NCBI GenBank assembly: GCA_036562765.1
Contig: DATCJO010000210.1
Location: 1 to 55,438, forward strand
Direction: 5' to 3'
DNA from: Tissierellaceae bacterium
Lineage (GTDB): Bacteria > Bacillota > Clostridia > Tissierellales > Tissierellaceae
DNA: 55,438 bases
The position numbers and the translations under genes are program-made. This document shows positions 4,123 to 50,670 of the stretch, piece after piece (positions within the stretch are counted from its first letter, which is position 1; each line of letters starts with the position of its first letter). The notes under the pieces are model-generated. The model was given only the letters and a program-made list of their open reading frames with translations. It searched no databases and had not been told where the DNA came from.

Positions 4123-5589
4123 GTGAACATATTCCTGAACAAGCTAAAGGATGTGTCTATGTCTGTTCTACCTATCACATTATTAGTACTTATCTTAAAT
4201 TTTACTATTGTTCCCGTTGAAAGAGAGATGCTTGTAAGATTTATAATAGGCGCTGTATTAGTGATTATAGGACTTGGTATTTTCCTATTTGGAGCTCATA
4301 TCGGGATATCGCCCATAGGCCACCTGATGGGTGAAACGATTGCAAAATCTAATAGGGCCTACATAGTAGGCTTATTGGGCTTTCTGTTAGGATTTCTAAT
4401 TAATATTGCAGAACCGGATATACAAATTTTATCCCATCAAGTTAGTCTAGCCTCTGGTGGTATGATTTCATTCTCTTCAATTCTTATAGTAGTATCCATT
4501 GGCGTAGGGTTAATGGTAGGATTGGGCCTTTTAAGAATAGTCTATGAGAAACCTTTAAATGTTTGCTATACTGTAGTCTATTTCATTATATTTATTCTAG
4601 GATTATTTGCCTTAGAGGAATTTTTGGCTATTTCTGTAGATTCTTCTGGAGCTACTACTGGTGCAATGACTACACCCTTTATTTTAGCTTTAGGCTATGG
4701 AGTTTCTCAGTTAAAAGGCGGAAAATCAGTGGAAGAAGACAGCTTTGGCTTGGTAGGAATGGCTTCTGCTGGTCCTATTGTGGCTGTATTGCTAATGAGC
4801 TTAATAAAAAGGATTACTAATGTACAGGGAGAAGCTGAAGCCTTTGTTCCAAATGTGGGGATTATAAAGCCATACATTCAAGTATTTCCACAGTATTTAA
4901 AAGAATCATTATTAACCATACTTCCCATATTAGTGTTGTTTATAATTTTCAATGGGCTTAAATTTAAACTAAACAGAAAAAGCAAGAATATAATATATAA
5001 AGGCCTCTTTTATACATTTACGGGACTTACCTTATTTTCTGTTGGTGTCAATGCAGGATTTATGGAAGTTGGCAGGGTAATGGGAGAATATATTGCTACC
5101 TACTATCCAAGGATTTTGCCAATTGTAGGTTTTGTAATGGGAATGGTAGTAGTATTGGCTGAACCTGCAGTATATGTACTTACAAAGCAAATAGAAGATG
5201 TTACAGCAGGGTATATTAAGCGTAATGTTATTTTAGGTGCACTTTCCATAGGAATTGCTTTTGCAGTTTCTATGTCAATGTTGAGGATTATGATACCTAG
5301 TTTAAAATTGTGGCACTTTTTGCTTCCAGGCTTTGCACTGGCTATCATTTTATCATATATAGTACCTCCGATTTTTGTTGGTATTGCATTTGATTCAGGC
5401 GGAGTAGCATCCGGTCCCATGACTGCCACCTTTGTTTTAGCCTTTGCCCAAGGAGCTGCTAATGCTATTCCTACTGCCAATGTATTGATAGATGGATTTG
5501 GCATTATTGCCATGGTTGCCATGACTCCGCTTGTAGCTTTGCAGTTACTTGGATTAATATTTAAAGTAAAGGCTAGAAAGGAGGGCTAA
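4123..5589 (+). CDS. Polytopic membrane protein with two DUF1538-like halves.
   Basis: 488 aa with about 12 hydrophobic segments and an internal repeat. It is immediately followed by a P-II-like gene, which is the usual DUF1538/P-II pairing. Confidence 0.5.
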   Translation: MNIFLNKLKDVSMSVLPITLLVLILNFTIVPVEREMLVRFIIGAVLVIIGLGIFLFGAHIGISPIGHLMGETIAKSNRAYIVGLLGFLLGFLINIAEPDIQILSHQVSLASGGMISFSSILIVVSIGVGLMVGLGLLRIVYEKPLNVCYTVVYFIIFILGLFALEEFLAISVDSSGATTGAMTTPFILALGYGVSQLKGGKSVEEDSFGLVGMASAGPIVAVLLMSLIKRITNVQGEAEAFVPNVGIIKPYIQVFPQYLKESLLTILPILVLFIIFNGLKFKLNRKSKNIIYKGLFYTFTGLTLFSVGVNAGFMEVGRVMGEYIATYYPRILPIVGFVMGMVVVLAEPAVYVLTKQIEDVTAGYIKRNVILGALSIGIAFAVSMSMLRIMIPSLKLWHFLLPGFALAIILSYIVPPIFVGIAFDSGGVASGPMTATFVLAFAQGAANAIPTANVLIDGFGIIAMVAMTPLVALQLLGLIFKVKARKEG

Positions 5590-5591
5590 AA

Positions 5592-6260
5592 GTGGATACA
5601 GCAAAAGATAGATTCATATTATTCTGCTCAATACTTGACTTCGGAAAAGGAAGCAAAGCATTAAGATTATCTAAAGAACTTGGTGCTTTAGGAGGTACAA
5701 TTTTTCTAGGAAGAGGGACCATAAGGAACGAGCTTCTTAAGATGTTGGGTGCTGTTGATATAAGAAGGGAAATATTCATAGCTATGATAGAAGAAAGCAA
5801 AGAAGATGAATTCTATGAAAATATGTTGAAAAAATTCCATTTAGATAAGCCTCATCATGGAATAGCATTTTCTTTACCGATAAAATACTGTGAAAAGATA
5901 GATGAAGATAAGTATATTTCCAATCCTGAAAAGGAAGGTGTTAAAAAAGTGGGCTATGATGCAATATTTATAATTGTTAATAAAGGATACATTGATGACG
6001 TTCTTGATGCAGCAGAAGCTGCTGGTTCCACTGGTGGCACAGTAATTCATGGCCGCGGTGCAGGTGCTTATGAAAAAGCAAAGCTATTTAACATTGAAAT
6101 AGAGCCTGAAAAGGATATATTACTCATTCTGTCTAAAAAAGAAAAAACAGAAGCAATAATAAATTCAGTTAGAGATAAATTAAAAATCGAAGAACAAGGC
6201 AAGGGCATAATTTTTGTTTTAGATGTTTCAAGAACAGTAGGGTTGTATGAAGGTGATTAA
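5592..6260 (+). CDS. Tandem P-II (GlnB-like) signal-transduction domain protein.
   Basis: 222 aa. Two repeats each carry a GxxGGTxxxGRG segment (GALGGTIFLGRGT and GSTGGTVIHGRGAG) that resembles the P-II T-loop region. It has a GTG start with an AAGGAGGG RBS. Confidence 0.55.
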   Translation: MDTAKDRFILFCSILDFGKGSKALRLSKELGALGGTIFLGRGTIRNELLKMLGAVDIRREIFIAMIEESKEDEFYENMLKKFHLDKPHHGIAFSLPIKYCEKIDEDKYISNPEKEGVKKVGYDAIFIIVNKGYIDDVLDAAEAAGSTGGTVIHGRGAGAYEKAKLFNIEIEPEKDILLILSKKEKTEAIINSVRDKLKIEEQGKGIIFVLDVSRTVGLYEGD

Positions 6261-8260: not shown

Positions 8261-10546
8261 GTGGGTGAGGACATGGTTCTTATTAATAAAAGTTTTACGG
8301 ATAAAATAATAAGCCTGAAAAATCCAAAGCATTTAGAAGAGGAAATGAATCAATTAAAGGAAAATTATTCGTATGTCGAAAAATTCACTAAAATTGGAAC
8401 TTGGACATATTATCCTGATTCAGGGGAGATATTTTGGTCAGAAGAGATTTATCACATACTAGGAATTGATTCTAAGTCTTTAACAAATGGTTTAAAAAGT
8501 TTTAACGAATATATTCATCCAGATGATTTAAAAAAAGTAGCTGAATTTGTAGAAAGTGCCATAAAAGGAAAAGGTTATAATATTGAATTTAGGATTATAG
8601 ATTCCAGTGGCAATTTGAAATTCCTAAAGGCAAGAACAGAGGTTATTTTAGATGATAGCGGAAGAGTTAAAAAAATCATAGGAATAGTTCAGGATATAAC
8701 TGAATCTAGGGAAGTATCTCAAATAGGAGTATCCTACATAACTAGTAGCGATAAATTAATAGGTTTGCCTAGTAGGGTAGACCTATTAGAAAAGTTAAAC
8801 CAGCACTGTACATATCTTAAGTTAGTGAAGAAACACTTTGCATTGATGATGCTGGATGTAAGTGATGTAAAGAATGTAAATTATTCTTTAGGATTTGATG
8901 TAATAGATAGTCTTTTAGATGAAATTTATGAGAGATTAAAAAGTTATTTAGGCCAAGGAGTATATATAAGCAGATATTATGATGATATATTTGCCATCAT
9001 ATTACAAGGCAAAAATGAATTAGGAGATTTTGAAACAATAGGAAAGGGAATTATTAATCAGTTTAAGAAACCATTTAAGATTGATAACTATCAATTCACT
9101 ATAAATGTTAACTTAGGAATATGTTCATATCCAAAAGATGCTGATAAAGCTGAAGATCTAATTAAAAATGCTAGGCTAGCTTTGATTATGGCAAAAAAAG
9201 AAGGCAAGAACTTATGCAGGTTTTATTCTTCAGATATGGAAATGAAATTATATGGGGAATTTGCCTTAAAAAGTGATTTAATCAAAGCTATAAAAGAAGA
9301 ACAATTTATTATCAACTATCATCCAGTAGTAAGTTTAAGTGACAATTCAATATTAGCTGCAGAGGCTTTGTTGAGATGGAACCATCCAGAATGGGGGATA
9401 ATTGGACCTAGCCAATTTATACATCTTGCTGAGGAGACCGGATTAATCGTAGATATTGGGAAATGGGCTTTAAGGGAAGTATGCAGAAACTATAAAAGTT
9501 GGGCAGAAAAAGGGCTGCCTTCAATAAAAGTATCAGTAAACTTTTCGCCAGTTCAATTATATGAAGAGGATTTTGCAGAAAATGTTTTAGGTATAATAAA
9601 GGAATATGGATTAGACCCAAAATTCCTTATTGTAGAAATTACAGAATCTGTTTTACTACAAGATGTTAGCATAATAGTTAGGAATTTAAAAAAGTTGCAA
9701 GCCAATGGTATACAGGTAACAATAGACGACTTTGGTACGTGTTATTCATCCTTAATGTATTTAAACAATTTCAATATTGACATAATAAAAATTGGCCAGT
9801 CCTTTCTTAAGAAAGTTTCTTCAAGTGAAATCAGCAAATCTATTATGAAATTTGTGGTTCAGTTGGCAAAAGAATTGAAAATAAAAGTAATTGCAGAAGG
9901 CATAGAATCCTATGAGCAACTGATGTTTTTGAAAAATATAGGCTGTTACATGGGACAAGGATTTATCTTTGGCGAACCTATCTCAGTGAAGGATTTTGAA
10001 AAAGTCTTGTCTAAAGGCAATATGCAGATAGCAGTTTTCAATGACATAACTGATTTATCTTATGCAGACAGGAGAAAATTCTTCAGAGTAAAATTTATCC
10101 ATTATTTAGAAGCTGATTTAACTGTACAGGAAATCCGAGGAGAAAAAGTTAATGTTGGAAGCACAAAAGTCTTAATAAAAAACATGGGCCCTGGAGGACT
10201 TTGCTTTATATCAAACATAAGATTCCCATCAAGTAAAGATTTGATTTTACAATTTACAACAGAAATGATGGGAGAAGAATTTAAATTTTATGGAAGTCCT
10301 GTTTGGGCTAAGAGGATAAACAAAGAATTAAATGAATATGGATTACAGCTATATGAATATGGTGTAGAATTTACACTTGATGAAAACGAGAGGAAGGAAT
10401 TAATAAAGACCCTTAACAAAGCACAAATTAAGATGAAGCGAAATGAATTATTTGTAGATGGAAGGTTTATTTCCATTACTCATATACAGTATTTTTCTAA
10501 TTTATTAAAAAATAAAGGCAGTGATACAATTAGCAATAATTGTTAA
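8261..10546 (+). CDS. c-di-GMP signalling protein with the domain order PAS, degenerate GGDEF, EAL, then C-terminal PilZ.
   Basis: There is a PAS block (EIFWSEEIYHILGI). RYYDDIF replaces R-x-GGDEF. The EAL domain keeps EALLRW, DDFGTC and EITES, but has KIG where KxD is expected. The C-terminal PilZ motifs RRKFFR and NMGPGGLCF are about 40 aa apart. The more likely start is the ATG at 8273, which sits behind a GAGGA RBS. Confidence 0.85.
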   Translation: MGEDMVLINKSFTDKIISLKNPKHLEEEMNQLKENYSYVEKFTKIGTWTYYPDSGEIFWSEEIYHILGIDSKSLTNGLKSFNEYIHPDDLKKVAEFVESAIKGKGYNIEFRIIDSSGNLKFLKARTEVILDDSGRVKKIIGIVQDITESREVSQIGVSYITSSDKLIGLPSRVDLLEKLNQHCTYLKLVKKHFALMMLDVSDVKNVNYSLGFDVIDSLLDEIYERLKSYLGQGVYISRYYDDIFAIILQGKNELGDFETIGKGIINQFKKPFKIDNYQFTINVNLGICSYPKDADKAEDLIKNARLALIMAKKEGKNLCRFYSSDMEMKLYGEFALKSDLIKAIKEEQFIINYHPVVSLSDNSILAAEALLRWNHPEWGIIGPSQFIHLAEETGLIVDIGKWALREVCRNYKSWAEKGLPSIKVSVNFSPVQLYEEDFAENVLGIIKEYGLDPKFLIVEITESVLLQDVSIIVRNLKKLQANGIQVTIDDFGTCYSSLMYLNNFNIDIIKIGQSFLKKVSSSEISKSIMKFVVQLAKELKIKVIAEGIESYEQLMFLKNIGCYMGQGFIFGEPISVKDFEKVLSKGNMQIAVFNDITDLSYADRRKFFRVKFIHYLEADLTVQEIRGEKVNVGSTKVLIKNMGPGGLCFISNIRFPSSKDLILQFTTEMMGEEFKFYGSPVWAKRINKELNEYGLQLYEYGVEFTLDENERKELIKTLNKAQIKMKRNELFVDGRFISITHIQYFSNLLKNKGSDTISNNC

Positions 10547-10635
10547 CCATTATGTAACTTGATTGTAAATCTAATGTAACCCATTTGGCTTCTATCCTTG
10601 ATATACTTTATATAAAAAGAAATGGGATAGGAGTG

Positions 10636-11721
10636 ATGTATATGAGAAAAATCAAAAAATATGTAGCCATGTCATTGATTTCATCTATGCTAATATTTCC
10701 AGTAGCCTCGATGGCAGAAAATAGTTTAGAAATTCCACCAGACAGCCCAGTAGAAAGCAATATAATCTTAGCACCTATTTCTGAAGAAGTGGATGATATA
10801 ATAAATGAAGTCCAAATTCCGGATTATATTGAATATAGAGGGAAAATTGCTGAAATCGATAAAAAAGGCGATATGGTAAGAATCTGGGTTAAGGATAATT
10901 TAGATGAAGAATTTAATGGAATGCTTTTCTATATAACAGAAGATGTAATCTTGTTGAATGACAAGACTAATGATTTTGCTAAAGCTGAAGAACTTAAAGT
11001 AGGCATGGATGTAACTGGCTATTATCATAAAGAAACAGTTATGGCAATGAGCATGCCTCCTCAATTGGCACCCAATGTAATCGTAATAAATGAAAATAAA
11101 AATCCAAGTTTTATCCGCATATCAAAATTCGATGAAAACCTAATAAGCTCTGAAGGGGATTTAAAACTAAATGTATCTGATGATACTACAATAATAGATA
11201 AAAATGGCAATAAAGTTAATAAGGAAGATATTAAGAATAAGGATTTAATAGTCTTCTACAATATCGTAATGGAAAGCTATCCAGCTCAAACAAAACCTGA
11301 AAAAATTATAGTTTTGGAAAGAAAAGAACAAGTAGCAGATACACCTGAATCAATAGAGTTGCAATTAAATATAGAAGCTTTAGGAAAGATAAACATCAAT
11401 GGAAAAGACATAAAGTTGGACAATGAAATGTTTGAAAATGAAAATGGAATAGTAATGATACCTTTAAGGCAAATAGCAGAAGCTTTAGGATATGAAGTTA
11501 CTTGGGACAATGATGCTAAGAGGATTGAGTTAATAAAGGGACCTCAATATATAACATTAACTATTGGAAAGGATAATTACAGCTTTGCTAAGATGCTAAT
11601 AAATCTTGGAAATGTTCCTGTTGTGAAGGATTCAAGAACTTTTGTACCTTTCGATTTTTTACAAGAAGTAATGAACTTGAAAGTAGAAATAATAGATGGG
11701 GTTATTAACATAACTGAATAA
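10636..11721 (+). CDS. Secreted protein with a C-terminal copper-amine-oxidase N-terminal-like (stalk) domain.
   Basis: Signal peptide MRKIKKYVAMSLISSMLIFPVASMA behind an AGGAG RBS. The C-terminal segment IPLRQIAEALGYEVTWDNDAKRIEL is the Cu_amine_oxidN1-type repeat. The ORF track places the start at 10585. Confidence 0.6.
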   Translation: MYMRKIKKYVAMSLISSMLIFPVASMAENSLEIPPDSPVESNIILAPISEEVDDIINEVQIPDYIEYRGKIAEIDKKGDMVRIWVKDNLDEEFNGMLFYITEDVILLNDKTNDFAKAEELKVGMDVTGYYHKETVMAMSMPPQLAPNVIVINENKNPSFIRISKFDENLISSEGDLKLNVSDDTTIIDKNGNKVNKEDIKNKDLIVFYNIVMESYPAQTKPEKIIVLERKEQVADTPESIELQLNIEALGKININGKDIKLDNEMFENENGIVMIPLRQIAEALGYEVTWDNDAKRIELIKGPQYITLTIGKDNYSFAKMLINLGNVPVVKDSRTFVPFDFLQEVMNLKVEIIDGVINITE

Positions 11722-11730
11722 GCATTTTAA

Positions 11731-11757
11731 GGAGCACTTTATATGTGCTCTTTTTTT
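11731..11757 (+). terminator. Rho-independent terminator.
   Basis: GAGCAC-TTTATAT-GTGCTC followed by T7. Confidence 0.7.
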
Positions 11758-11782
11758 ATATGAGTATATTTCAAAAGGTGAT

Positions 11783-11811
11783 TGTAATATTTTGTCAAAT
11801 ATTGTATAATT
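11783..11811 (+). promoter_or_regulatory. SigA-like promoter.
   Basis: TTGTAA-N17-TATAAT, about 120 nt upstream of the ATG at 11933. Confidence 0.4.
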
Positions 11812-11932
11812 TTCGTAGGTCTTTTGTCCTATTTTAATTAAACTATAATAGTACTATAGTACTAATTTATAGCTTTACTATTTTACATGTAAAATATAGA
11901 GCACCTTACCAAATAAGATTAGAGGTGACGAG

Positions 11933-11995
11933 ATGAAAAACATAATAAAAAAAACATTTAAACCAATAAGGGTATTACAATTAGAAAAAAATTAG
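11933..11995 (+). pseudogene. Detached N-terminal fragment of the downstream PAS-GGDEF-EAL-PilZ gene, separated from it by an apparent -1 indel in an A7 tract.
   Basis: An ATG behind an AGAGGTG RBS encodes MKNIIKKTFKPIRVLQLEKN*. Reading resumes in the adjacent frame as ..KKLEQLKESYIYVQSLIKVGSWIYYVDEDEVFWSEEIYNLLGV, which aligns with the N-terminus of the paralogue at 8261. One extra A in the run at 11985-11991 joins the two frames. Confidence 0.7.
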
Positions 11996-12129
11996 AACAA
12001 CTAAAGGAAAGTTATATTTATGTTCAAAGTTTAATAAAAGTTGGAAGCTGGATATATTATGTTGATGAAGATGAAGTATTTTGGTCAGAAGAAATATATA
12101 ATTTATTAGGAGTTAAATCAAAATCTTCA

Positions 12130-15100
12130 TTGAAAAAATTAGAGGACTTTTATAGATTTGTCCATCCAGAAGATTTAGAAAAAGTAGTAAAATCTATAAG
12201 CAATTCATTTCAAGGAAGGGAATTTGATATTGAGTTTAGAATCATTAATAATAATGGGGATATAAAGTTTTTAAGGGAAAAGGTTAAGGTCATTTTAGAA
12301 GAAAACAAAGTTCAAAAGATAGTCGGAATTATTCAAGATTTAACAGAAAATATGGCTGTAAAAGAAAACTTAAAATTTTTTAGTAGGGATTTAATAGATT
12401 TACAAAGGATTTTGGGGATAGGAGCATGGAGATATAGTTTTAAGGAGAAGAAATTTTACTATACAAATGAGGTATTTAGTATATTAAACATCGAGCAGAA
12501 AGATTTGGGAAATAATTATGAAATGCTGTTAGAACTAATACATCCTCAAGATAAAGCTATAGTTAAAGGTGCCATAAAAAATTATGTCGCTGGTGATGCT
12601 ATTGATATAGAGTTTAGGATATTGGAAAATGATGGTACATATAAGTATGTTAAAGCAAAAGGAGAACCTCAATATGACAAAAATGGGGAATTAGTTGAAT
12701 TATTTGGGATACTACAGGATATAACAGATAGTAAAGTATTAGAGGAAAAAATTAACACAGTAAATGATATCGCTTTAAAGGTAGAGAACCTTGCTCATGT
12801 TGGAAGCTGGCAAATGAATTTGGAAAATAAAGAGTTGATTCTTTCAAAAGAAGCTATGAAAATCTATGGGATTAATCCTGTTAAATTTGACAATAGCTAT
12901 GAAGAATTTCTAAAAAGAGTTCATCCAGAAGACCAACATATTTTTAATGACATATTAGATAATCCACCTAATAATCCTTGTAGTTTAGAATACAGGTTTT
13001 TAAAGCCAGATGGTTCAATTAGTTATATATATCATAGGATTGATTTTATTTTTAATGAAAAAAACAAGCCAGTTTTTGTATATGGAGTTATTCATGACAT
13101 TACAGAATATAAGGAATTAAAAAGCAAGCTGAAAGAAGAGCATATTGAAAGAATAAAACTGGAAAAGAAATATGAAACACTGATTCAAGGTTCTAATGAT
13201 GTCTTTGAAATTTTGGATAAGGATGGAACTACTATATATGTTAGCGATGCAGTTGAAAGGGTTATTGGCTATACAGTTAAGGAGAAATTAGGGAGAAAGC
13301 CATGGGAATTTTTTGACGGAAAAGAAGCTGAAAATGTAAAAAATATAGTTCTAATGTCATTATCTAGTCCTAACAAAAGGATTATAGAGAATTTCCCACT
13401 TAAAAGAAAAGATGGGCAAAAAGTTCATATTGAAGTTAGCATACAAAATCTACTTAATAATTCTAGTATTGAAGGTATAGTATTAAGTTACAGGGATATA
13501 ACAAAAACAATAGAAACTGAGAAAAAAATGTCCTTTATGTCTACCCATGATAAATTAACAGGGCTTCCTAATAATATTTTTTTTATGAAAAAATTAAGGC
13601 AGCAGTGTGAATATGCTAATGAGAATAAAAAGCCCTTTGCATTGATGATGTTGTATATTGATGGAATAAAAGACATAGCTTATTCTTTTGGCTATGAAAC
13701 AGAGGAACAACTATTAATAAATGCAGTTGAGAGAATAAAGGATTATTTAGGGGAAGAAACTTTTATAAGCAGATATCATGATGACCTTTTTGCTATTATA
13801 GTCCATGGCATGAAGGATTTGGGGGATTATGAAACAATTGGAAAGGGAATTATAAAGCAATTTATGTATCCTTTTAAAGTAGAAAGTTATGATTTTGATT
13901 TAGGTGTTAATTTAGGCATATCAATATATCCTAAAGATGCTGAAGGTTATGAATCTTTGATAAGGAATGCAAATCTTGCTTTAATTAGAGCAAAAAAAGA
14001 GGGGAAAAATGTACAGAGATTTTATTCTTCTGATTTAGATATAAAAAGCTATAGGGAATTTATTTTAAAAAGCGACTTGCACAGGGCTATTAGTGAAAAT
14101 CAATTACGCATATATTATCAGCCAATTGTAAGGTTAAATGATAATAATATTTTAGCTGCAGAAGCCCTTTTAAGATGGAATCATCCAGAATGGGGGATAA
14201 TATTCCCTTCTGATTTTATACACCTTGCTGAAGAAACTAGATTAATTATTGATATAGAAAGATGGACTTTAAAGGAAGTCTGTAAAAATTACTGTGAATG
14301 GATTAAAAATGGATTGCCATCTATTAAAGTTTCTGTTAATTTTTCACCTATACAATTTTATGAAGAGAATTTTGTTGATGATATTTTAGATATAATAAAC
14401 CAGTATGAATTAAATCCAGATTTCCTTATTATAGAAATTACTGAATCTACTTTCTTAAAGAATCAAGATACTATAATTAAAAATTTAAAGAAACTTAAAT
14501 CCCATGGGATACAAATTGCCATAGATAATATAGGGAAGGGATATTCTTCCTTGCTATATTTAAGCAGTTTTAATGTTGATATAGTAAAAATTGATAAATC
14601 ATTTACAGGAAATATTTCATTAAATGAAAACAATAAATCTATAATAAAACTCATCGTTAATGTTGCAAGGGAACTTAAAATAAAGCTAGTTGCAGAAGGA
14701 ATAGAAACAGTTGAAGAATTATTGTATTTAAAGAGCATAAATTGCTATACAGGCCAAGGTTTTATTTTTAGCAAACCATTAGAGGTAGAGGATTTTGAAA
14801 AACTATTAAAAGAAGGGAATGTAAAATCTGTATTATTTAAAGATTTGGCGAATGTACCTTTTGCAGAAAGAAGGAAATTCTTTAGGATTAATTTCCTACA
14901 ATTATTGGAAGGAGATTTGACAGTACAAGAAATTCGAGGGAAGAAAATCAATGTAGGAAATACAAAAATACTTATTAAGAATTTAGGTCCTGGAGGTTTG
15001 TGTTTTATATCAAACATAAGATTTCCAGTTGAAAAGGATATTGTCTTACAGTTTACCACTGAACTTGTAGGTAAAGAACTTAAAGTATATGGCTACCCTG

Positions 15101-15342
15101 TATGGAGTAAAGAAATAAAAAGCAATCTATATGAGTATGGGATAAAGTTATATGAGTATGGTGTGGAATTTTCTGTTGATGAAAATGAAAGAATGGAGTT
15201 AATAAGGGAATTGAATAAGGTACAGATAAAGATGAAAAAGAATGAGCTATTTGGAGAAGGCAGATTTATTTCTGGTACTTATGTCCAGTATTTTGCTGAT
15301 TTAAATAAAAATATGAATGAAAAAAGATTAAGTAATAGTTAA
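12130..15342 (+). CDS. c-di-GMP signalling protein with about four PAS domains, a degenerate GGDEF, an EAL and a C-terminal PilZ. The real 5' end is probably at 11933 across the frameshift.
   Basis: There are multiple PAS blocks. RYHDDLF replaces the GGDEF motif. The EAL domain has EALLRW, EITEST and KID, but DNIGKG where DDFGTG is expected. The PilZ motifs are RRKFFR and NLGPGGLCF. It is a paralogue of 8261..10546. The track start at 12130 is a TTG inside the first PAS domain. Confidence 0.85.
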   Translation: MKKLEDFYRFVHPEDLEKVVKSISNSFQGREFDIEFRIINNNGDIKFLREKVKVILEENKVQKIVGIIQDLTENMAVKENLKFFSRDLIDLQRILGIGAWRYSFKEKKFYYTNEVFSILNIEQKDLGNNYEMLLELIHPQDKAIVKGAIKNYVAGDAIDIEFRILENDGTYKYVKAKGEPQYDKNGELVELFGILQDITDSKVLEEKINTVNDIALKVENLAHVGSWQMNLENKELILSKEAMKIYGINPVKFDNSYEEFLKRVHPEDQHIFNDILDNPPNNPCSLEYRFLKPDGSISYIYHRIDFIFNEKNKPVFVYGVIHDITEYKELKSKLKEEHIERIKLEKKYETLIQGSNDVFEILDKDGTTIYVSDAVERVIGYTVKEKLGRKPWEFFDGKEAENVKNIVLMSLSSPNKRIIENFPLKRKDGQKVHIEVSIQNLLNNSSIEGIVLSYRDITKTIETEKKMSFMSTHDKLTGLPNNIFFMKKLRQQCEYANENKKPFALMMLYIDGIKDIAYSFGYETEEQLLINAVERIKDYLGEETFISRYHDDLFAIIVHGMKDLGDYETIGKGIIKQFMYPFKVESYDFDLGVNLGISIYPKDAEGYESLIRNANLALIRAKKEGKNVQRFYSSDLDIKSYREFILKSDLHRAISENQLRIYYQPIVRLNDNNILAAEALLRWNHPEWGIIFPSDFIHLAEETRLIIDIERWTLKEVCKNYCEWIKNGLPSIKVSVNFSPIQFYEENFVDDILDIINQYELNPDFLIIEITESTFLKNQDTIIKNLKKLKSHGIQIAIDNIGKGYSSLLYLSSFNVDIVKIDKSFTGNISLNENNKSIIKLIVNVARELKIKLVAEGIETVEELLYLKSINCYTGQGFIFSKPLEVEDFEKLLKEGNVKSVLFKDLANVPFAERRKFFRINFLQLLEGDLTVQEIRGKKINVGNTKILIKNLGPGGLCFISNIRFPVEKDIVLQFTTELVGKELKVYGYPVWSKEIKSNLYEYGIKLYEYGVEFSVDENERMELIRELNKVQIKMKKNELFGEGRFISGTYVQYFADLNKNMNEKRLSNS

Positions 15343-15443
15343 ATCTAACAATTAACCATTTAATTGAATTTTAAGAAACATCCATTAGTCAATGTGGCAT
15401 GAAAATTTTTCAAGAGTTTTTTAGCATATTTTAAATGAAAAAA

Positions 15444-15490
15444 AGAGGATAAATGGAGGTATGTCCATTTGTCCTCTTTTATTTATTAAA
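15444..15490 (+). terminator. Rho-independent terminator.
   Basis: AGAGGATAAATGGA / TCCATTTGTCCTCT followed by a T-run. Confidence 0.65.
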
Positions 15491-29079: not shown

Positions 29080-29152
29080 TGGGCGGTATAGGGCTCGAAC
29101 CTACGACTTCCACCATGTCAAGGTGGTACTCTACCAGCTGAGTTAACCGCCC
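29080..29152 (-). tRNA. tRNA-Val, anticodon GAC.
   Basis: On the minus strand it reads GGGCGGTTAACTCAGCTGGTAGAGTACCACCTTGACATGGTGGAAGTCGTAGGTTCGAGCCCTATACCGCCCA. This folds as a cloverleaf with a 7/7 acceptor stem, a TTCGAGC T-loop and the anticodon loop TTGACAT. CCA is not encoded. Confidence 0.8.
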
Positions 29153-48309: not shown

Positions 48310-48600
48310 TATATCAAATAAGGTAAAATATAGAAATGACATTAAAAATTGCAAATTCAAAGGTAGTGAAGGGGAGAGTAGGATAAATTTTAATCTAAAG
48401 AGAGCTGGGTAAGGTGAAAGCCAGTGATTAAAATTATTCCGAAGATGGCCCCGGAACCTTGTGGTCGATATGTAGGCCACGACGGAAGCAGCCGTTACGC
48501 TGTAAGGTTTTAAACCTACTGAGGCCTAAATCGCAAGATTTAGGCGAATTAGAGTGGTACCACGAAGTCAACCTTCGTCTCTAAGAGATGAAGGTTTTTT
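48310..48600 (+). ncRNA. T-box riboswitch leader, Met-specific, controlling metG.
   Basis: It has an AGAGAG box in stem I, a candidate specifier AUG at 48445-48447, the T-box sequence AATTAGAGTGGTACCACG at 48547-48564, and a terminator AACCTTCGTCTC/GAGATGAAGGTT followed by T6. Confidence 0.7.
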
Positions 48601-48723: not shown

Positions 48724-50670
48724 GTGAAAAAATACTACTTGACTACACCAATTTATTATCCTTCTGACAATCTACACATTGGACACACTTACACAACAGT
48801 AGCTGCAGATGTAATTAAGAAGTTTAAGAAGATGCAGGGATACGATGTATATTTTGTTACAGGTACTGATGAACACGGACAAAAAATTCAAAACAAGGCA
48901 AAGGAAAATGGATTAAGTCCAAAGGAATATGTAGATAAAATTGTTGCAGATATTAAAAAACTTTGGAAGCTGTTAGAAATTGATTATGACACTTTCATAA
49001 GGACCACAGACCCACAACATGAAAAAGCAGTTCAGGACATATTCATGAAGTTGTATGAAAAAGGAGAAATATATAAGTCAACATATAAGGGCCTTTACTG
49101 TACTCCTTGCGAATCTTTCTGGACAGAGTCCCAATTAGTAGATGGAAAATGTCCAGATTGCCATAGAGAAGTTCATCCTGCAGAAGAAGAAGCATATTTC
49201 TTCAGGCTTTCAAAGTATAGGGATAAGCTGTTAAAGTTTTATGAAGAACATCCAGATTTTATCCAACCTGAATCTAGGAAAAACGAAATGATTAATAACT
49301 TCTTAAAAGATGGTTTGGAAGATTTATGCGTAACAAGAACAAGCTTTGACTGGGGAGTTAAGGTTCCTTTTGATCCAAAACATGTAATATATGTATGGAT
49401 AGACGCCTTAGCTTGCTATATTACAGCTTTAGGATATGGTTCAGATAACGATGAGAACTTCAAAAAATATTGGCCAGCTGATGTCCACCTAGTTGGCAAG
49501 GAAATTGTCAGGTTCCACACCATAATATGGCCAGCACTTTTAATGGCTTTAGGATTAGATATACCAAAGAAGGTATTTGGCCATGGCTGGATATTGTTTG
49601 AGGACGATAAGATGTCTAAGTCTAAAGGAAATGTAATTTATCCTGAACCACTTATTGAATTATACGGTATAGATGCATTTAAATACTTCTTATTGAGGGA
49701 ATTCTCCTTTGGCCAAGATGGAAACTTCAGCAGGGAAAAATTCTTGCAAAGATTAAACTCCGACTTGGCAAATGACTTAGGAAACTTGGTAAGCAGAACT
49801 GTTACCATGATTCAAAAATACAATGATGGAGTAATACCATCACCAGCAGTGGAAGAAGAAATAGATAAGTCCTTGAAAGATTTGGCTGTTAGTATTGCAC
49901 CTAAAGTTGAAGAATACATGGACCAACTAAACTTCTCACAAGCATTAGAGGAAATATGGAAGCTAATTAGAAGGACAAACAAGTATATAGATGAAACTAC
50001 ACCATGGATTTTGGGAAGCGAAGGCAGGAAAGATAGGCTTGATACAGTACTTTACAACCTAACTGAATCCTTAAGGATTATAACAATATTGATTAAGCCA
50101 TTTATGGAAAAGACATCCTTAGAAATAAGAAGGCAATTAGGAATTGATGGAGAAATCTTGTGGGAAGATTCAAAGGTTTGGGGTAAACTAGAAGTAGGTG
50201 GAAAAGTAGGAGATAGGAAGATAATATTCCCAAGGCTTGACATTCAAAAAGAATTGCAAAAACTAAATGAAGCTAATGAAAAGCTAATAATAGAAAGAAG
50301 CAAAGTGAAGAAGGAAAATAAAGAAGAAGCTAAAGAGGAAATAGAAGAAATTACAATCGACGACTTTAAAAAAGTTCAATTAAGGGTAGCAGAAGTTATT
50401 TCTTGCGAAAACCATCCTAATGCTGATAAACTATATGTATTGAAGTTGAAATTAGGGGAAGAAGAACGACAAGTCGTATCAGGAATTAAAAAATACTATA
50501 AACCAGAGGACCTAGTAGGCAAAAAGGTAGTAGTAGTTGCAAACTTAAAGCCTGTGAAACTTAGAGGTGTTGAATCTAAGGGAATGATATTGGCTGCAGA
50601 AGACACAGAAGGAAATCTTACTTTAGTATCAACCCTAGAAGACATAGCTTCCGGTGCAACAATTTCATAA
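48724..50670 (+). CDS. metG: Methionyl-tRNA synthetase with a C-terminal EMAP/Trbp111-like tRNA-binding domain.
   Basis: It has the HIGH motif (NLHIGH), KMSKS, a zinc knuckle CTPCESF..CPDC, and a C-terminal OB-fold (VAEVISCENHPNADKLYVLKL). Confidence 0.95.
   Translation: MKKYYLTTPIYYPSDNLHIGHTYTTVAADVIKKFKKMQGYDVYFVTGTDEHGQKIQNKAKENGLSPKEYVDKIVADIKKLWKLLEIDYDTFIRTTDPQHEKAVQDIFMKLYEKGEIYKSTYKGLYCTPCESFWTESQLVDGKCPDCHREVHPAEEEAYFFRLSKYRDKLLKFYEEHPDFIQPESRKNEMINNFLKDGLEDLCVTRTSFDWGVKVPFDPKHVIYVWIDALACYITALGYGSDNDENFKKYWPADVHLVGKEIVRFHTIIWPALLMALGLDIPKKVFGHGWILFEDDKMSKSKGNVIYPEPLIELYGIDAFKYFLLREFSFGQDGNFSREKFLQRLNSDLANDLGNLVSRTVTMIQKYNDGVIPSPAVEEEIDKSLKDLAVSIAPKVEEYMDQLNFSQALEEIWKLIRRTNKYIDETTPWILGSEGRKDRLDTVLYNLTESLRIITILIKPFMEKTSLEIRRQLGIDGEILWEDSKVWGKLEVGGKVGDRKIIFPRLDIQKELQKLNEANEKLIIERSKVKKENKEEAKEEIEEITIDDFKKVQLRVAEVISCENHPNADKLYVLKLKLGEEERQVVSGIKKYYKPEDLVGKKVVVVANLKPVKLRGVESKGMILAAEDTEGNLTLVSTLEDIASGATIS

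Follow-up and report, generated by a model that had tools for sequence, protein, structure and literature searches.

In Xanthomonas the protein FimX, which combines REC, PAS, degenerate GGDEF and degenerate but cyclic di-GMP (c-di-GMP)-binding EAL domains, works with a protein of the PilZ fold, XAC1133/XCC1028 (PMC8389850). The two genes described here lie in tandem, together with a gene for a secreted protein, between positions 8261 and 15342 of a 55,438-nucleotide contig of a Tissierellaceae bacterium (assembly GCA_036562765.1, contig DATCJO010000210.1; the whole contig is referred to as the window). They encode PAS/degenerate GGDEF/EAL/PilZ proteins, designated paralogue 1 and paralogue 2, which look like the same pairing in cis. 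The Xanthomonas PilZ protein is a separate polypeptide that has neither the RxxxR nor the [D/N]hSxxG motif and does not bind c-di-GMP, whereas in the proteins studied here the PilZ domain is fused and RxxxR is kept. Similarly, the EAL domain of FimX lacks the DDFGTG motif, while the EAL domains of the two paralogues keep nearly all catalytic residues.

Three other groups of proteins are relevant for comparison. In YcgR and PlzD (VCA0042) RxxxR is located in the segment between two domains, and binding of c-di-GMP closes these domains together. The paralogues share with them the position of RxxxR in a flexible interdomain segment and the C-terminal PilZ barrel, and both proteins are among the best fold matches; unlike in the paralogues, their N-terminal partner is PilZN and not an enzyme, and Gly replaces the Ser of their second PilZ motif here. 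The active phosphodiesterases MorA, RocR, PA3825, MucR and PdeA/CC3396 resemble the paralogues in the EAL domain (E-values between 1e-38 and 1e-56) and have the same core catalytic residues, but they contain no PilZ domain and each paralogue lacks one ligand of the metal site M2. In PdeA/CC3396 the degenerate GGDEF domain upstream of the EAL domain binds GTP. Finally, the trigger proteins PdeR and PdeL and the degenerate-EAL receptor LapD are, like the paralogues as we read them, EAL proteins mainly sensing rather than clearing c-di-GMP (PMC5052742), although in these proteins the EAL site itself is the sensor and there is no separate PilZ domain.

All three genes between 8261 and 15342 are on the + strand, in the order paralogue 1, secreted-protein gene, paralogue 2. 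The coordinates of the two paralogues are:

8261..10546, + strand: paralogue 1, 761 amino acids (aa), PAS_3 / degenerate GGDEF / EAL / PilZ (list of open reading frames and Pfam)
11933..15342, + strand: paralogue 2, 1136 aa with the reading frame restored, four PAS domains / degenerate GGDEF / EAL / PilZ

Paralogue 1 has an alternative start at ATG 8273. In the sequence of paralogue 2 as it stands, the longest open reading frame (ORF) with a start codon extends from 12130 to 15342 (1070 aa). The EAL domains scored 236.5 and 249 bits with PF00563 (cut-off 31.3), covering positions 3-236 of the 236 of the model, and the GGDEF domains 92.8 and 95.3 bits with PF00990 (cut-off 23.8). In paralogue 1 the Pfam E-values were 3.5e-70 for EAL, 2.5e-26 for GGDEF, 5.2e-19 for PAS_3 and 3.1e-4 for PilZ. 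Over the 641 aa that span GGDEF, EAL and PilZ the paralogues share 58% identity; the best-kept domain is PilZ (71% identity), with EAL at 61%, and the sole PAS domain of paralogue 1 matches best the first PAS domain of paralogue 2. A reading made from the sequence before any database search (the sequence-only reading) had described the locus as a tandem pair of such paralogues flanking a secreted protein, and the Pfam domains and the level of identity bear this description out.

The active-site motifs of the GGDEF and EAL domains were located as follows:

8975..8995, + strand: YYDDIFA, degenerate GGDEF signature of paralogue 1, in place of GG(D/E)EF
13774..13794, + strand: YHDDLFA, degenerate GGDEF signature of paralogue 2 (motif inspection)
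9317..9325, + strand: YHP of paralogue 1, YQP in 98% of the family; the Gln is equivalent to RocR Q161
9725..9742, + strand: DDFGTC of paralogue 1, both Asp retained, final Gly of loop 6 replaced by Cys
9788..9796, + strand: KIG of paralogue 1, catalytic Lys retained, KxD Asp replaced by Gly (equivalent to RocR D318 and PA3825 D183)
14524..14541, + strand: DNIGKG of paralogue 2, second Asp replaced by Asn (equivalent to RocR D296 and PA3825 D161), F replaced by I and T by K
14587..14595, + strand: KID of paralogue 2, canonical (motif inspection)

The strings reported earlier were thus all found: RYYDDIF and RYHDDLF with no GG(D/E)EF, DDFGTC and KIG against DNIGKG and KID, and EAL and EITE in both proteins. 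The GGDEF signature is SEDHF-like across the family, and as GG(D/E)EF is absent the GGDEF domains are predicted not to be cyclases. In the EAL domain both paralogues contain EALLR, the EAL Asn, EITE, EGIE and QG. The residues by which an intact EAL core is recognized are E175, N233, E265, E268, D295, K316 and E352 of RocR, whereas the positions of Q161, D296 and D318 are classed as auxiliary 'recognition' residues and not as core catalytic ones (PMC2952852). On alignment with RocR all seven core residues (E, N, E, E, D, K, E) were present in both paralogues; the auxiliary/M2 set (Q161, R179, D296, D318) and loop 6, DFG(T/A)GYSS, were incomplete in both, with His for Gln161 and Gly for Asp318 in paralogue 1 and Asn for Asp296 in paralogue 2. 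Comparison with Protein Data Bank (PDB) entries gave E-values down to 1.5e-56 for MorA, MucR, RocR and DosP, and with spacings of 22 and 34 the residues correspond one by one to those of RocR and PA3825. In PA3825 the Mg2+ ion at M2 has Asp161 and Asp183 as ligands (PMC5301497). Because these two residues are M2 ligands and the spacings match, both changes in the paralogues appear to remove Asp ligands of one and the same metal site, M2.

The active site of EAL domains lies within one subunit. The sequence-only reading was right that a different residue is lost in each copy, but the alterations, which it had called complementary, both hit the same intra-subunit site, M2, and so cannot make up for each other. 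It had also suggested that the EAL domains may be catalytically dead. This conclusion cannot be drawn: a recent classification regards an EAL domain as inactive only if the catalytic base of EGxE is lost and otherwise as 'uncertain' (bioRxiv 10.1101/2024.06.21.600002), and with all seven core residues kept both domains fall into the latter class. Sequence alone supports a weakened M2 site and not a dead enzyme; it does not distinguish a dead domain from a slowed one.

The PilZ motifs of the C-terminal module are:

10073..10087, + strand: RKFFR, RxxxR motif of paralogue 1, directly after the low-confidence linker
10181..10198, + strand: NMGPGG, second PilZ motif of paralogue 1, Gly replacing the canonical Ser
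14872..14886, + strand: RKFFR, RxxxR motif of paralogue 2 (motif inspection)
14980..14997, + strand: NLGPGG, second PilZ motif of paralogue 2 (motif inspection)

In both proteins RKFFR is part of RRKFFR. The second motif is defined as [D/N]hSxxG (bioRxiv 10.1101/814665); its D/N, h and G positions are filled in both paralogues and Ser is replaced by Gly. Of the motifs proposed earlier RxxxR was thus confirmed, while '(N/D)xSxGG' is really N(M/L)GPGG. The PilZ model of Pfam (PF07238) gave 21.4 and 21.6 bits, just under the cut-off of 22.5 bits (E about 3e-4); the orthologue at a related locus, L007, scored 35.4 bits, and 24 of 27 relatives matched at E<0.01. In an AlphaFold2 model of the last 176 residues (predicted local distance difference test score, pLDDT, 78) a six-stranded barrel is followed by a long helix. 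The best matches found by Foldseek in the PDB were MrkH, MotI/DgrA, YcgR, BcsA, VCA0042, MapZ and PlzA (probability 1.0, E 7e-4 to 0.05). Because the modelled barrel matches best c-di-GMP-binding PilZ structures, the assignment goes beyond chance, and the C-terminal module is by its predicted fold a PilZ domain of the c-di-GMP-binding type. The fusion in cis of such a PilZ domain to an EAL domain, a central point of the sequence-only reading, is thus supported by the EAL match in Pfam and by the modelled PilZ fold. When residues 331-761 of paralogue 1 were modelled, both domains were confident (pLDDT 88) with a predicted template modelling score of only 0.66, and the linker, residues 593-604 (model residues 263-274), which immediately precedes RRKFFR, had pLDDT values below 50.

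The PilZ C-terminal helix is followed by a conserved, family-specific tail with the pattern LFxDGxFxSxxxxxYF (about residues 726-745 of paralogue 1; window positions 10400-10500 and 15200-15300 for paralogues 1 and 2). In an alignment of 27 sequences F731, F736, Y744 and F745 were invariant and G734 was at least 90% conserved. The tail could serve as a docking element.

Relatives were sought by several routes. A word-indexed search with the PilZ module yielded 13 fragments only, including an identical one of 174 aa (P0001), and no relative was confirmed by the first pattern scan of species-representative genomes. When the peptide pattern [IM]GPGGLCFI was run against such genomes, one for each species, it identified 32 loci in Tissierellaceae, Lutispora, Acetobacterium, Mobilitalea, Defluviitalea, Wansuia, Alkalibacterium and various metagenome-assembled genomes of Clostridia. 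Their ORFs encode 700-1170 aa; all 27 full-length proteins (27/27) have PAS, GGDEF and EAL domains and 24/27 have a PilZ match. With the EAL-PilZ half of paralogue 2 as query, the matches spanning both domains fell into more than 100 clusters at 90% identity, including a few from Bacilli, all with generic names such as 'EAL domain-containing protein'. An exhaustive profile search of 1.84 billion representatives returned 488 proteins at E<=1e-10, of which 229 reached E<=1e-30. The 229 represent clusters at 50% identity, so that the family comprises at least 229 such clusters, and all named members among them are from Bacillota. Among the 150 matches listed the EAL-PilZ module is located at the extreme C-terminus of full-length proteins.

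The architecture is therefore uncommon but not unique, and the proteins form a well-defined family. The sequence-only reading, which had proposed that the occurrence of the architecture be surveyed, had called it rare; this does not fit at least 229 clusters at 50% identity and 32 species-representative loci, nor the fact that such fusions have been on record since 2006. PilZ fusions with GGDEF, EAL and HD-GYP were noted in the 2006 description of PilZ (as cited in bioRxiv 10.1101/814665), and PilZ fusions are mentioned again in a later survey (bioRxiv 10.1101/2020.02.11.943704). Full-text searches of the literature available turned up no experimentally characterised family member. The two proteins are new members of a catalogued but unstudied family. 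Its annotation is a practical difficulty: the PilZ domain of these proteins is just below the Pfam cut-off and the named members carry generic EAL or GGDEF names. At locus L001 (7528-10201), on a low-coverage ENA contig, a PAS-GGDEF-EAL-PilZ gene is called as three ORFs; many database 'members' are such fragments, and this has an effect on any census made from called proteins.

The key residues were compared in 116 representatives having all key columns. All 12 EAL residues were canonical in 88/116 (76%). M1 ligands were substituted in 14/116 and M2-site residues (second Asp, KxD Asp, EGxE Glu) in 24/116; in ten of these 24 the M1 ligands and the Lys were intact. In the PilZ domain RxxxR and the final Gly were present in 116/116 and the D/N in 114/116, whereas the 'Ser' position was occupied by Gly in 92, Ser in 23 and Thr in one. 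The set of 90%-identity clusters gave the same picture. Because 88 of the 116 have a canonical EAL site and RxxxR is invariant, the family is ancestrally catalytic, and its PilZ ligand-binding residues are its most constrained feature. M2-ligand loss has occurred several times, and Gly looks like a selected state in a lineage that also contains the canonical Ser. Two species of Acetobacterium illustrate the pattern, each with two unlinked members. A. carbinolicum has L026, with a canonical EAL site, and L030; A. bakii has L017, which is partly degenerate (DDVGTG, ELSE, AVGIE), and L031. The EAL domains of L030 and L031 are strongly degenerate (Lys replaced by Leu, ND, AVGI/ATGI), and RxxxR and GPGG are intact in all four. 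An invariant PilZ domain next to an M2 site that erodes in about a fifth of the members offers a testable lead on the conversion of enzymes to receptors. The family also bears on Gly as a possible substitute for the 'essential' Ser in the PilZ motif.

In a neighbour-joining tree the two paralogues were sisters. Paralogue 1 had the longer branch, and of the two it was always paralogue 2 that lay closer to the relatives. DDFGTG and KID are both canonical in P0090, the nearest EAL relative found, which shares 68% identity with paralogue 2. Because the paralogues are sisters and P0090 is canonical, each M2 ligand was probably lost independently after the duplication. Each copy deviates at two of the columns conserved in at least 90% of the family, which equals the family median of 2. 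Because of this low number and the identity retained in PilZ and EAL, both copies appear to be still under purifying selection. As to location, comparison with L007 (5094-13151) puts paralogue 1 in the ancestral place upstream of the secreted-protein gene and shows the ancestral four-PAS architecture kept by paralogue 2; the place that paralogue 2 occupies in the window is taken in L007 by genes for a histidine kinase, NifU and a tRNA-binding-domain protein.

These observations can be accommodated by the following explanation, to which we assign an even chance: the proteins are lineage-specific duplicates of a Bacillota PAS/degenerate GGDEF/EAL/PilZ family, each of which has lost one M2 Asp and now binds c-di-GMP with slowed turnover. 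The family members would be cytoplasmic proteins consisting of one or more PAS sensors, a non-cyclase degenerate GGDEF, a c-di-GMP-specific EAL phosphodiesterase and the C-terminal PilZ domain. External input would be supplied by the PAS domains, and the degenerate GGDEF, like that of PdeA/CC3396, may be a GTP-binding domain. By analogy to YcgR and PlzD/VCA0042, binding of c-di-GMP may wrap the linker and dock the PilZ barrel against the EAL domain. The substrate of the enzyme, bound at PilZ, would thus tune EAL hydrolysis in cis on top of the PAS input; such feedback is suggested because RxxxR follows the low-confidence linker between EAL and PilZ. With the KxD Asp replaced by Gly and the Gln by His in paralogue 1, with the second Asp replaced by Asn and loop 6 degenerate in paralogue 2, and with the M1 ligands, the Lys, the catalytic-base Glu and the Arg retained in both, the weakened M2 sites would favour long-lived c-di-GMP-bound states of both copies. 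Both are thus most likely weak phosphodiesterases or trigger-type sensors and not normal enzymes or decaying genes. The feedback of c-di-GMP on its own phosphodiesterases is poorly understood, and a PilZ-EAL fusion offers a simple natural system for its study.

Several points weigh against this explanation. Binding, regulation and rates are what we infer from the anatomy of the proteins. The orientation of PilZ relative to EAL is predicted without confidence. About 80% of the family have Gly for the canonical Ser, so that binding of c-di-GMP by these PilZ domains is presumptive. An Asn can still ligate Mg2+ and water can replace a lost Asp, so the EAL domains could be near-normal; they could also be fully dead. 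Finally, the frameshift of paralogue 2 (see below) may abolish its function.

More tentatively, the family may represent a series in which a self-sensing phosphodiesterase, controlled in cis by c-di-GMP through PilZ, has repeatedly turned into a slow or binding-only sensor through loss of M2 ligands with PilZ invariant. The two paralogues would then be independent intermediates in a single genome, and GPGG would be a new functional c-di-GMP signature.

The main suggestion of the sequence-only reading, that neither EAL domain has any catalytic activity, seems unlikely. The proteins would then, like FimX or LapD, serve only as c-di-GMP receptors, with one binding site in EAL and another in PilZ. 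The missing M2 ligand in each copy, the degenerate loop 6 of paralogue 2 and the Gln to His change at a substrate-recognition position of paralogue 1 are compatible with such receptors, and the family does contain clearly dead EAL domains with an intact PilZ, for example L030 and L031. However, none of the seven core RocR residues is missing from the paralogues, which have both the Lys and the EGxE base; loss of that base is what the published rule demands for calling an EAL domain inactive, and receptor EALs such as that of FimX have no DDFGTG at all (PMC5301497).

The opposite view, that both are ordinary phosphodiesterases working at normal rates and the substitutions are neutral variation, we also consider rather doubtful. 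It agrees with the auxiliary status of the changed positions (PMC2952852) and with their variability, as the same positions vary in 9-16% of the family members. Structural work has nevertheless identified both residues as direct M2 ligands (PMC5301497), and the concentration of the family's substitutions at the M2 site looks like functional tuning rather than drift.

The beginning of paralogue 2 required separate analysis. The start listed for it, 12130, falls midway through a PAS domain and lacks a ribosome-binding site. A good ribosome-binding site and an ATG are found at 11933, where a 20-codon frame (MKNIIKKTFKPIRVLQLEKN) ending in TAG begins; the main frame is open from 11962. The break maps to:

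11985..11991, + strand: A7 run, reading-frame break of paralogue 2; A8 or a -1 shift restores the frame

One A added to the run joins the 20-codon frame and the main frame into a protein of 1136 aa, which is collinear (residues 2 to 1122) with the 1135-aa L007 orthologue and 48% identical to it over 1126 aa. Because the joined frames align end to end with this orthologue, we conclude that the gene starts at 11933 and carries a one-base frameshift, which reflects either a mistake in the assembly or a genuine lesion. In other assemblies the A-run site, sought in metagenomes with 5-10 intervening bases allowed, had 0 matches. A perfect -1 slippery heptamer, A_AAA_AAT, stands immediately ahead of the TAG and would allow -1 slippage. 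No stable structure was found downstream of it (79 nt folded no better than shuffled sequences, z = -0.18). Programmed -1 frameshifting at A_AAA_AAT-TAG is neither supported nor excluded.

The frameshift in the A7 run would fit a history of decay, in which paralogue 2 is a pseudogene and paralogue 1, with its longer branch and without three of the PAS domains, a truncated, fast-evolving remnant; moreover, the window contains no other homopolymer-split gene, and a noisy assembly is thus not obvious. We nevertheless hold decay to be improbable: the frame of paralogue 2 runs on for more than 1100 uninterrupted codons after the break, neither copy exceeds the family median for changes in strongly conserved columns, both keep their PilZ motifs, and sequencing commonly produces one-base errors in homopolymers.

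The third gene of the locus and the terminator-like structures are:

10585..11721, + strand: secreted protein, likely start ATG 10642, with signal peptide, weak DUF3221 similarity and C-terminal Cu_amine_oxidN1
11729..11753, + strand: terminator-like hairpin with T run, 3' of the secreted-protein gene
15441..15480, + strand: terminator-like hairpin of 17 pairs, 3' of paralogue 2

ATG 10642 is preceded by a GGAG ribosome-binding site. The Cu_amine_oxidN1 domain (PF07833) occupies residues 271-369 (E 2.4e-22, 79.4 bits, cut-off 24.2), and a Sec-type signal peptide was assigned by inspection only, with the boundary between MRKIKKYVAMSLISSMLIFPVASMA and EN; the middle protein is thus probably secreted and carries a copper-amine-oxidase-N domain as predicted earlier. 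No terminator separates paralogue 1 from the secreted-protein gene, so that co-transcription of the two is possible. A promoter-like site is found at 11782-11810, upstream of paralogue 2. A homologue of the secreted protein occurs near a family member at only one of the 32 related loci, L007, where it is about 0.8 kb downstream of the PilZ protein with an opposite-strand pseudouridine synthase gene between them, and clustering of all ORFs of the 32 loci and the window revealed no conserved gene partner. The secreted protein looks like a neighbour or bystander and not a conserved partner, and the 'signal-to-envelope output module' of the sequence-only reading was not upheld. It is thus highly improbable that the three genes form such a module, with the PilZ/EAL proteins controlling the secreted one, despite the missing terminator and the neighbouring homologue in L007, as the intervening opposite-strand gene there and the other 31 loci, with no nearby homologue or conserved neighbour of any kind, speak against it; equally so that the two paralogues rebuild one active site as a heterodimer, a candidate rejected on structural grounds since both defects affect the same intra-subunit metal site and cannot complement each other in trans. 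Beyond the family pattern this is an ordinary locus, a duplicated signalling gene without a conserved partner.

The window contains no other c-di-GMP gene and no c-di-GMP riboswitch (the Rfam matches were a T-box and a tRNA only, both away from these genes). The other neighbours are unrelated to c-di-GMP and code for DUF1538, P-II-like, HAD hydrolase and glyoxalase-family proteins and for a 2-hydroxyacyl-CoA dehydratase with its activator. The gene of the DUF1538 membrane protein is immediately followed by that of a 222-aa protein with a C-terminal P-II-like domain (4123-6260). The T-box leader (48357-48585, + strand, 128.9 bits) is located upstream of a 648-aa ORF (48724-50670), and the tRNA gene is at 29080-29152 on the - strand. 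In four related genomes (L009 3115-5055, L016 8545-11034, L018 8501-10996 and L013 3751-5538) a same-strand gene 42-264 bp from the family member encodes a c-di-GMP turnover protein, which has the PAS / intact GGDEF / HD-GYP (HD_5) architecture in three cases and dCache-HAMP-GGDEF in one.

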